DNA of 36,200 bases from a virus. The stretch covers positions 1 to 36,200 of IMG/VR virus record IMGVR_UViG_3300045988_075886; one strand, 5' to 3'. The notes beneath the pieces are model-generated. The model saw only the letters and a program-made list of their open reading frames with translations. It searched no databases and had not been told where the DNA came from. The translations under genes were made by a program, and so were the position numbers. Positions 2,989 to 3,096 of the stretch are shown one piece after another (position 1 is the first letter of the stretch; every line of letters begins with the position of its first letter).

Positions 2989-3018
2989 CTCTCCACCCCG
3001 CTTTCGGCATTATTTAAG

Positions 3019-3058
3019 CTGTCTGTCTGTCTGTCTGTCTGTCTGTCTGTCTGTCTGT
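3019..3058. repeat. Tetranucleotide microsatellite (CTGT)10, which is (ACAG)10 on the coding strand
   Basis: Ten perfect units counted directly in the 108-bp gap between the two paralogous genes. Confidence 0.98.
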
Positions 3059-3062
3059 CAAG

Positions 3063-3090
3063 ATTGTATTTGTAATTCTCATAGCGTCAA
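3063..3090 (-). promoter_or_regulatory. Putative sigma-A type promoter immediately upstream of the microsatellite
   Basis: Minus strand reads TTGACG (3090..3085), a 16-nt spacer, then TACAAT (3068..3063). A second perfect TTGACA is formed at the repeat border (3061..3056). Confidence 0.4.
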
Positions 3091-3096
3091 TCCCTC

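Follow-up and report, generated by a model that had tools for sequence, protein, structure and literature searches.

We analysed a 36,200-nucleotide (nt) stretch of viral DNA, the IMG/VR virus record IMGVR_UViG_3300045988_075886 (hereafter the window), and focused on a tetranucleotide repeat tract, (ACAG)10, located in the 108-nt gap between two small minus-strand genes. A first-pass annotation had singled out this tract as the only long simple-sequence repeat in the window and had proposed that its length switches the second of these genes, which encodes a 122-amino-acid (aa) protein. Tandem Repeats Finder (TRF) and open reading frame (ORF) analysis confirmed the repeat and its position: the 36.2-kb window contains one perfect simple-sequence repeat, CTGT x10.2 at 3019-3059 on the plus strand with 100% matches, and it falls between ORF 3097-3489 and ORF 2620-2988, both on the minus strand. 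We propose that the tract is a phage contingency locus that gates translation of an accessory fibre head through the reading frame of a short leader ORF, an explanation in which we have slightly better than even confidence. A sequence check and a consensus scan also located every element that the annotation had described in the gap, and these are listed here with the two genes that flank it.

3097-3489, minus: first small fibre-head paralog, 130 aa (MRRRMLMDL...), without a preceding repeat tract
3097-3099, minus: TAG stop of this upstream gene
3093-3098, minus: AGGAGG, ribosome-binding site (RBS) of the leader ORF, overlapping the TAG stop
3063-3090, minus: promoter-like element, TTGACG (3085-3090), 16 nt, TACAAT (3063-3068); 10/12 in the consensus scan
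3014-3082, minus: leader ORF, 22 codons plus stop, MRITNTIL(TDRQ)n...A; ATG at 3082-3080 and, with 10 units, TAA at 3016-3014
3056-3061, minus: TTGACA at the tract border
3019-3058, minus: (ACAG)10 tract, the slippage-prone element, reading CTGT on the plus strand; 100% matches in TRF
3009-3018, minus: CTTAAATAAT, after the tract
3010-3018, minus: CTTAAATAA stop block, with stops at 24 and 28 nt upstream of the gene that end two leader frames; the remaining frame passes through
2973-2997, minus: predicted hairpin in which the RBS (GGUGGAGAG) is paired with codons 3-5 (CUGCUCC) and the AUG lies in the loop
ending at 2988, minus: GGTGGAGAG, then the ATG (2988) of the second head gene
2985-2988, minus: ATGA overlap of the head-gene start with the TGA stop (2987-2985) of the leader frame that reads through (n = 8, 11, 14)
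2620-2988, minus: second small fibre-head paralog, 122 aa, the gene proposed as phase-variable

The leader has an RBS of its own (AGGAGG-N10-ATG), and its end depends on the number of repeat units. With ten units it comprises 22 codons and stops at the TAA at 3016-3014, with eleven it reaches the TGA of the ATGA, and with nine it stops at the TAA at 3012-3010, exactly as the first-pass annotation had calculated; eight units likewise lead to the TGA of the ATGA (2987-2985) and twelve to the TAA at 3012-3010. When we varied the tract in silico from -3 to +3 units, the leader stop rotated among positions -28, -24 and +1 relative to the ATG of the head gene. Taking about five or more units as the threshold for a slippable tetranucleotide tract, (ACAG)10 is a perfect slippable tract, and a whole-unit change shifts the leader reading frame. 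The repeat does not lie inside the regulated ORF itself, as a stop separates the tract from codon 2 in every frame.

The ten-unit tract was reproduced in independent assemblies of human-gut metagenome contigs that encode the 130-aa protein (L001 from ENA and L002 from JGI). We rejected an assembly artefact because independent ENA, JGI and Logan assemblies agree. A search of positions 2500-3600 against Rfam gave no match.

The start of the 122-aa gene is predicted to be strongly folded. Folding the region from -24 to +27 around each start codon gave -13.9 kcal/mol for this gene, which ranked first among 42 gene starts (0 to -11.8 kcal/mol for the other 41), and the predicted structure sequesters both the RBS and the start codon. 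The paralog without a tract has no such hairpin (-4.3 kcal/mol, z = +1.0). It begins MRRRM and lacks the extra "xLL" codons that make up the 3' arm. Since the "xLLRRR" codons of the tract-regulated paralogs form this arm while the tract-less paralog starts MRRRM, the N-terminal protein motif shared by the two may be in part an RNA-level constraint.

Repeat cassettes in related loci

We traced homologues of the 122-aa and 130-aa proteins to their contigs and added two loci from a metagenome scan, for a total of 24 loci. Wherever a contig includes the upstream region, a microsatellite occupies the homologous gap, and its unit and length vary, as listed here by repeat unit.

ACAG: 9 (L013), 7 (L005-1), 3 (L014-1), at least 12 (L102) and, beside a scaffold gap, at least 4 (L018)
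ACAT: 5 (L007), 13 (L020)
AACG: 6 (L014), 7 (L018)
AGAGC: 4 (L014), 9+5 (L012), at least 9 (L011), at least 5 (L003)
ACAGC: 3-4 (L005, L016)

The first-pass annotation had suggested comparing tract length in relatives, and this comparison shows that the orthologous or paralogous position is always occupied by a 4-5-nt repeat, differing in unit and copy number. Among related genomes copy number thus varies while the flanks are kept: the leader of L102 is identical to that of the window, yet it contains at least 12 units as opposed to 10. Each of the five unit types has 4 or 5 nt, and in none is the length a multiple of three. The five units differ from one another by single mutational steps, and the tract is therefore probably ancient, having been kept as a repeat while its sequence drifted. 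Such retention despite drift is probably evidence of selection for repetitiveness, and the tract reads as a contingency-type repeat that is conserved as a repeat and variable in length.

These repeats are confined to the cassettes. Across the 24 related loci and the fibre region of the window, 28 repeats have a 4-5-nt unit and a length of 12 nt or more, and every one of them falls within a cassette. As background, and also for host assignment, we used 80 related prophage loci (1.41 Mb) retrieved from GTDB genomes with a capsid query, which end before the fibre region. These contained no 4-5-nt repeat of 16 nt or more, and the few repeats present have 3- or 6-nt units; tblastn did not find the head domains in these 80 loci. 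Several phages carry two or three small head genes in tandem, each behind its own cassette (L014 1237-2413, L005 1765-2449, L016 1-628 and L018 2962-3553), and the cassettes of one genome have different units (ACAG, AACG and AGAGC in L014). Distinct units would limit recombination between cassettes and keep the switches independent. Genes of homing-endonuclease type (NUMOD1/NUMOD3, GIY-YIG) lie in or beside head arrays (L014 1-606 and 2905-3756; L020 1349-2356), and these insertions suggest a hotspot of mobile insertion and cassette exchange.

Assemblies tend to break at these tracts. In 15 of the 24 loci a contig end or an N gap lies at a tract or within ~80 nt of one, and in L018 a run of Ns marking a scaffold gap (2923-2961) sits exactly where the first tract should start. 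Such loci are thus likely to be systematically under-represented or truncated in viral catalogues. We found no relatives among IMG/VR viral contigs by single-protein, alignment or DNA-pattern scans; INPHARED phages returned only collagen-repeat noise with blastn and no match to the 122-aa protein with tblastn, and a head-protein alignment query of GTDB genomes gave no match.

The cassettes fall into two leader classes. Class 1, which includes the window, has the order upstream stop, AGGAGG, TTGAC[AG], leader ATG, tract, CTTAAATAA-type block, ...GGGGTG..., ATGA; its leader ATG lies 7-10 nt after AGGAGG and, in all class-1 cassettes, exactly 24 nt before the tract. In class 2 the leader ATG is just 6-9 nt before the tract and has its own GGAG(G/A) 8-12 nt upstream, and the region downstream of the tract reads GTAATCTGA...CCGGAGGTGATGTTATGTCACTTCTGA. 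Most cassettes, whichever their class, have a GGAGG-type site 7-12 nt ahead of the leader ATG, even though the position of the ATG differs; it is degenerate in L005-1 and L007 (AGGAAA, AGGAGA). Also conserved in both classes is a near-consensus sigma-A-type element, TTGAC[AG]-16/17-TAnnAT, which scores 10-11/12 in most cassettes and 8-9/12 in the GAAC class and L005-2. The gap between its end and the tract is 3-4 nt (4 nt in the window; 6 in L005-2).

Both types of downstream region have the same frame geometry. In nine of ten cassettes analysed, two leader frames stop upstream and the third ends at or shortly past the start codon of the gene, the exception being L014-3, where all three frames stop upstream. 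The early stops lie 24-28 nt before the gene ATG in class 1 and 37-42 nt before it in the class-2 type. The third frame is always the +1 frame of the gene and ends at +1 (ATGA) in class 1 and at +10 where the downstream region is of class-2 type; in L016-1, which we read from the sequence outside this set of ten, it ends at +7. The early stops survive substitution, with TAA changed to TAG in L014-1 and L003 and replaced by CTTGATTAA (TGA plus TAA) in L014-2, and ATGA is present in all class-1 cassettes despite differing second codons (AGA, AAC or AGC).

The hairpin over the start codon also recurs. In relatives the homologous structures have predicted energies of -15 to -24.4 kcal/mol (z down to -6), with the RBS paired with codons 2-5 and the AUG inside or beside the loop, and 14 of 15 cassette genes (-13.9 to -24.4 kcal/mol) lie beyond all 41 control starts (minimum -11.8). 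The core in class-2-type downstream regions is a 10-bp helix, CGGAGGUGAU / GUCACUUCUG, and the outer helix partners change with Arg-codon usage (CUGUC/GACGG, CCGCCG/CGGCGG and CGC/GCG). RNAalifold recovered the core helices with one compensatory pair per class, so covariation support is modest. A second, small hairpin in the spacer (CCG-AAAG-CGG) was rejected because L014-1 and L018-1 do not preserve it.

In three relatives the leader is joined to the head. In L005-1, a single in-frame ORF of 218 aa spans the leader, (ACAG)7 and the head (MRIMNTIL(TDRQ)n..GGCMSLLRRR...), and P0047 is an in-frame MLRAEQSR...MSLLRRR fusion. In L018-2, (GAAC)7 is joined directly to head codons (...GRHEFYDGSYIEV, homologous to the L014 and L016 heads); no other RBS or start codon is available there, and the leader is one unit out of frame. 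No sense can be made of these fused forms unless translation does start at the leader ATG and the repeat exerts its effect through the reading frame. Judged from these ORFs, the tract is translated in all three relatives, which have the in-gene arrangement of phase variation that the window lacks. A cluster look-up of two fused-leader proteins for length variants returned singletons only.

The 122-aa protein, its tail module and its genome

The annotation had described the two small genes as paralogs located just downstream of a collagen-like fibre gene, and both points held. BLASTP aligned the two proteins at 38% identity over the N-terminal 48 aa (E = 9e-5), and their predicted folds match over the whole length (template-modelling (TM) score 0.49, Foldseek probability 1.00). 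Pfam Collagen is found in the ORF at 3479-4552, immediately upstream. ORF, Pfam and PHROGs analyses place the locus within a siphovirus tail and lysis module on the minus strand.

7512-11483, minus: tape-measure protein
6733-7515, minus: distal tail protein (Dit-like)
5735-6739, minus: minor tail protein
between the minor tail protein and the fibre in gene order, minus: two more tail genes
3479-4552, minus: collagen-like tail fibre gene, 357 aa; Pfam Collagen E = 3e-9, PHROG tail-fibre families
1914-2606, minus: conserved 230-aa gene (phrog_27545), 13 nt downstream of the last head gene
after the 230-aa gene in module order, minus: holin-region genes, then an Amidase_3 endolysin

The order of tape-measure, distal tail, minor tail, collagen-like fibre and head genes sets the cassette beside a fibre shaft in the tail module. 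The end of the fibre gene overlaps the start of the 130-aa gene by 11 nt, and we read the 130-aa paralog, which is coupled directly to the fibre gene, as the default head. The 230-aa gene always follows the last head gene, an order common to L003, L005, L007, L009 and L016; we list it as context and assign it no role in the switch.

The 122-aa protein belongs to a small family. Relatives of it are 61-93% identical, and a profile search of 1.84 billion representatives found only 36 members (36 representatives at 50% identity). In many of these, the ~110-aa domain (GSFTP...YLVPEQYNWIAW) forms the extreme C-terminus of longer, fibre-like proteins with N-terminal "ADAIRxKTG"-type or Gly-rich regions, one of which contains a PHROG tail-fibre segment. 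AlphaFold2 with a 41-sequence alignment predicted a short N-terminal helix and a beta-sandwich with a predicted local distance difference test (pLDDT) score of 89.5; an earlier run with 15 close homologues (pLDDT 50) was discarded. The best non-self BFVD matches are annotated as tail fibre (E = 6e-4 to 4e-3, TM 0.40-0.52), and the 130-aa paralog was matched as well. Pfam and PHROGs had no match to either small protein, and Foldseek found no significant neighbour of the 122-aa protein in the PDB. The annotation's description of the product as fibre-like finds support in the position of the family domain at the C-terminus of longer fibre-like proteins and in structural resemblance to predicted tail fibres, and a fibre head or receptor-binding tip is a reasonable, putative assignment.

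Where the protein starts is called differently in public assemblies. Two of them take internal ATGs (giving 114 aa and 104 aa) as the start of the regulated gene instead of 2988, and the 104-aa start (ATG 2934) follows GGAGG-N7, with M or V at that residue in relatives. A shorter isoform without the N-terminal helix is conceivable. An exact look-up of the 122-aa protein returned no record because gene callers picked the shorter starts.

The window itself is a complete temperate siphovirus genome of ~36,175 bp. Identical 25-nt sequences at 1-25 and 36176-36200, together with a tyrosine integrase (34469-35566) and an adjoining gene for an Ltp-family surface lipoprotein (33364-34311; Pfam E = 3e-29), mark it as circular and temperate, and the 25-nt match is the overlap of a circular assembly. 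The lipoprotein is likely a superinfection-exclusion function of the prophage. A protein of "Siphoviridae sp. ctX926" matches the 122-aa protein at 100% identity. One contig of a metagenome-assembled Candidatus Anaerostipes excrementavium genome encodes a capsid protein 99% identical to that of the window, and over 12 kb of the structural module the DNA of this contig is 85% identical. Further relatives among the capsid-query loci come mainly from genomes of Lachnospiraceae and other Clostridia, and by comparison with these relatives the host is probably a Lachnospiraceae bacterium.

Three further features of the genome are recorded here as separate observations. Three to four copies of a TGGAACAAAAATGG-type motif lie at 35562-35854, directly 3' of the integrase gene, and are candidate arm-type integrase sites or attP-region repeats. 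At 27193-27325, inside or beside a DUF6291 gene (26837-27580), two 37-nt direct repeats (GGTTTTTTGGGTTTTCGTTTAAACCGTTCGGTTTTTC, 92% identical) come after a degenerate (TATCTT)n run; these repeats could be replication-origin iterons. In the major capsid protein (14708-15904), Pfam matches a CarboxypepD_reg-like (Ig-like) domain at the C-terminus (E = 1e-5, below the gathering score), and this domain may be a capsid decoration module.

A proposed frame-dependent switch and its alternatives

Of the interpretation in the first-pass annotation, the hypermutable repeat and the coupling logic gained comparative support, and the transcriptional toggle was not supported. We hypothesize that translational coupling would operate as follows. 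The leader would be started at ATG 3082 by ribosomes that have completed the upstream head gene or have loaded on the AGGAGG at its stop, and these would read through (ACAG)n. Replication slippage would alter n by whole 4-nt units and thereby rotate the frame in which ribosomes exit the tract. In two frames they would stop in the CTTAAATAA block, 24-28 nt short of the gene, and the RBS and AUG of the head gene would stay locked in the hairpin (OFF, or low expression), which is the state predicted for the ten-unit sequence of the window. In the third frame (n = 8, 11, 14...), the ribosome would cross the 5' arm of the hairpin and terminate on the TGA of the ATGA, and termination there would free the start site of the head gene for re-initiation (predicted ON). 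Only lengths with n = 2 modulo 3 would be ON in this phage. ON virions would carry or use a second head besides the default one, giving a bet-hedging mix of receptor specificities.

This coupling idea fits the anatomy, in that a leader with its own RBS, two early-closed frames, a third frame ending at +1, +7 or +10, a hairpin predicted to mask the RBS and three fusions all occur among the cassettes compared. We infer from it a useful slippage rate, control of expression by coupling and the identity of the product as a receptor-binding head. By extension, temperate phages of gut Lachnospiraceae would carry a switchboard of one to three head genes, each gated by its own microsatellite leader and switching independently through different units, so that lysogens would release varied head combinations; we offer this wider picture tentatively and give it somewhat less than an even chance.

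Several observations weigh against the proposed switch. First, for an AT-rich spacer of 30-50 nt the pattern "two frames closed, one open" is no improbable outcome of chance, and the states observed over distinct cassettes are spread among the frames about as chance would have it, which neither supports nor contradicts the model. For that reason we rejected the argument that most observed states are OFF; a chance-like spread would be expected of a fast switch sampled at random and is no evidence in itself. Second, the contig ends at tracts fit k-mer repeat problems as well as they fit length heterogeneity, so we did not count them as proof of the latter. Third, the covariation behind the hairpin is thin, at one compensatory pair per class, and the cassettes are related by descent and so are not independent observations. 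Fourth, the RBS of the 122-aa gene is well spaced and gene callers prefer the internal 114-aa and 104-aa starts; some constitutive expression is therefore possible. Fifth, the protein matches tail fibres weakly in structure (E = 6e-4, TM 0.52), with no PDB match. Finally, a near-consensus promoter-like element is co-conserved with the leader and covers its ATG, so transcripts from this element would lack the leader ORF. The promoter signal and the leader signal may both be functional, and they are not reconciled with each other.

The last of these points underlies the first alternative, in which the tract is a repeat in a 5' untranslated region (5'-UTR) of the hmw1A type. Here a real internal promoter would start transcription at the first unit, tract length would have a graded effect on mRNA stability, processing or translation, and the leader ATG would be irrelevant. 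This alternative accounts for a promoter-like element that scores 10-11/12 in most cassettes and lies just before the tract in both leader classes, and for T1, A2 and T6 being the conserved positions of its -10 hexamer; there is also a precedent in Haemophilus influenzae, where the heptamer repeats of hmw1A are transcribed in the 5'-UTR (PMC12721329). However, the leader region (2950-3105, minus) folds no better than shuffled sequences (z = 0.16), with the tract unpaired and no long hmw-like hairpin, and we therefore rejected a tract-containing RNA hairpin of this type. The GAAC class has a degenerate -10 (CATCCT or CAGCCT) but retains the RBS, ATG and tract, the GGAGG that lies inside the promoter "spacer", 8-12 nt from the leader ATG, would be left without a reason, and the relatives with fused leaders need translation through the tract. 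Unit lengths of only 4 or 5 nt and the lack of a terminator upstream of the cassette also speak against this explanation, which we regard as unlikely.

A second alternative is that the repeat is a by-product: a hotspot of slippage and recombination at a module junction where phages exchange, duplicate or delete head cassettes, in which the repeat persists mutationally and the gene is expressed constitutively from its own RBS. In its favour is mosaicism at the tract, with class-1 leaders joined to class-2 downstream regions in L007 and L016-1, (ACAT)13 joined to a class-1 downstream region in L020, and deletions that begin exactly at the tract end in L005-1 and L018-2. The number of cassettes varies from one to three between phages, some arrays contain homing endonuclease genes, and the head gene does have a well-spaced RBS. 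Yet perfect tracts that are not maintained decay, whereas here five units persist, in up to 13 copies, across proteins that are 61-93% identical, and no such repeats occur elsewhere in 1.41 Mb of related DNA. Differing units within a genome would lower, not raise, recombination between cassettes, and a mutational by-product leaves the conserved leader RBS and ATG, the stop block and the hairpin unexplained. We consider a by-product improbable.

Least likely, in our judgement, is that the window tract is a relic of in-gene phase variation, left when a spacer uncoupled an ancestral leader-tract-head ORF like those of L005-1 and L018-2: fused-leader forms do exist, and all frames in the window stop before or at the ATG so that no fusion is possible, but the spacer, stop block, ATGA and hairpin are the commonest and most conserved architecture (the window, L013, L014-1, L014-2, L018-1, L020 and the whole class-2 set), the fused forms look like deletion derivatives of the spacer type, and the tract remains both long and perfect, with 10 units in the window and at least 12 in L102.

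Other mechanisms were rejected. The first-pass annotation had allowed that tract length might toggle transcription. From the TTGACA at the tract border, however, the next -10-like box is 39-41 nt away, a spacing of ~40 nt, and this TTGACA is absent in pentanucleotide cassettes, so we discarded it as a functional -35. The tract also fails geometrically as a promoter spacer, the arrangement of the TA repeats of hifA/B and similar switches. It starts 4 nt after TACAAT, outside the -35/-10 spacer, and because TTGACG-16-TACAAT lies upstream of it, its length cannot alter the spacing of that element. Heteropolymeric repeat units are not known to be slippery for polymerase, and on this general ground we rejected slippage on the tract during transcription or translation. 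We likewise dismissed an invertible segment and a diversity-generating retroelement, as inverted repeats are absent on either side of the fibre genes and the window lacks a long pair of template and variable repeats; Pfam and PHROGs found no invertase or reverse transcriptase next to the locus.

Comparison with known systems

The proposed switch resembles the tetranucleotide contingency genes of H. influenzae, such as lic1A (CAAT)n, lgtC (GACA)n and hgp (CCAA)n. As in these genes, a perfect tetranucleotide tract follows right after an initiation codon, and the lgtC unit GACA is the same repeat as ACAG. Slipped-strand changes in the H. influenzae genes rotate the frame and switch a surface-interaction function, much as we propose for the window tract, and PMC2651432 names tetranucleotide repeats as the main drivers of phase variation in that species. 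Unlike in H. influenzae, the window tract lies in a separate 22-codon leader ORF (the fused L005-1 and L018-2 excepted), the proposed ON state results from termination, re-initiation and hairpin melting and not from the restoration of one long ORF, and the tract is carried by a temperate phage that probably infects a Gram-positive gut anaerobe.

A second precedent is the opa multigene family of Neisseria, which carries (CTCTT)n in the region coding for the leader peptide. Here too, paralogs each have their own 5' penta- or tetranucleotide tract, as in the three cassettes of L014, and the independent switching of opa members, which gives combinatorial expression, is the likeness that we propose for the head arrays. 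Unlike the tracts described here, opa repeats lie inside the signal-peptide region of the gene itself, and opa genes encode bacterial adhesins, not parts of a virion.

In hmw1A, (ATCTTTC)n is intergenic, lying between the promoter and the adhesin start, and is transcribed with a post-transcriptional effect that is graded and needs a long hairpin of the repeats with a G-rich arm, as well as RNase III (PMC12721329). The window resembles hmw1A in that its repeat lies between a promoter-like element and the start codon of the downstream gene. It differs in that its units shift a reading frame and in that no structure containing the tract is predicted, so the hmw hairpin has no counterpart.

For the downstream step, the closest parallels are ermC and cat attenuation and the coat/replicase coupling of RNA phages, in which a leader ORF exerts control through a hairpin over an RBS. 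In these systems, as proposed here, a ribosome on a short upstream ORF opens the hairpin that holds the RBS and AUG, and terminates beside the start codon. The triggers differ: stalling by a drug or constitutive coupling in the known systems, a heritable and reversible change in DNA length in the proposed one.

Phages diversify host range by other means as well, including the invertible fibre segments of Mu (Gin) and P1 (Cin) and the diversity-generating retroelement of BPP-1. The presumed purpose, alternative or variable fibre tips in one phage population, would be shared with the cassettes; the mechanism differs. The contingency loci reported in phages are homopolymer runs within ORFs, and PMC12633550 lists T2 agt, T4 rIIA and the Fletchervirus receptor-binding proteins, the last with reference to Sorensen et al. 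2021. In the same preprint, the BASEL survey scanned homopolymers only and found them under-represented in tail fibres. The homopolymer loci are, like the proposed switch, hypermutable phage-borne repeats that give phenotypic heterogeneity in progeny. They differ in consisting of a single nucleotide repeated over 6-11 nt, and in lying inside the ORF whose product they truncate or restore; the window family has 4-5-nt units, in up to 13 copies, within a leader ORF and in repeated cassettes.

The first-pass annotation had suggested that microsatellite variation of tail-fibre genes was not a standard mechanism in Firmicutes phages, and this claim of novelty holds in part. The principle is not entirely new, since PMC12633550 and the work cited there describe homopolymer contingency loci of phages, and our full-text literature search returned no account in which 4-5-nt repeats gate tail-fibre genes or in which phase variation acts through coupling to a leader ORF. 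If the proposed switch is real, host recognition of common temperate gut phages would be a stochastic, heritable and reversible population trait that is not fixed by sequence, with consequences for metagenomic host-range prediction, for models of phage-bacterium coexistence in the gut and for the stability of engineered or therapeutic phages. It would also extend multi-base repeat contingency loci from bacterial pathogens to phages and represent phase variation by translational coupling, with the repeat outside the regulated gene. Its logic, in which the frame of a leader ORF acts by termination and re-initiation at a masked start, would be new, as would its organisation in tandem cassettes with mutually different units, and together they would make up a form of host-range bet-hedging that relies on neither invertible segments nor diversity-generating retroelements nor homopolymer frameshifts.

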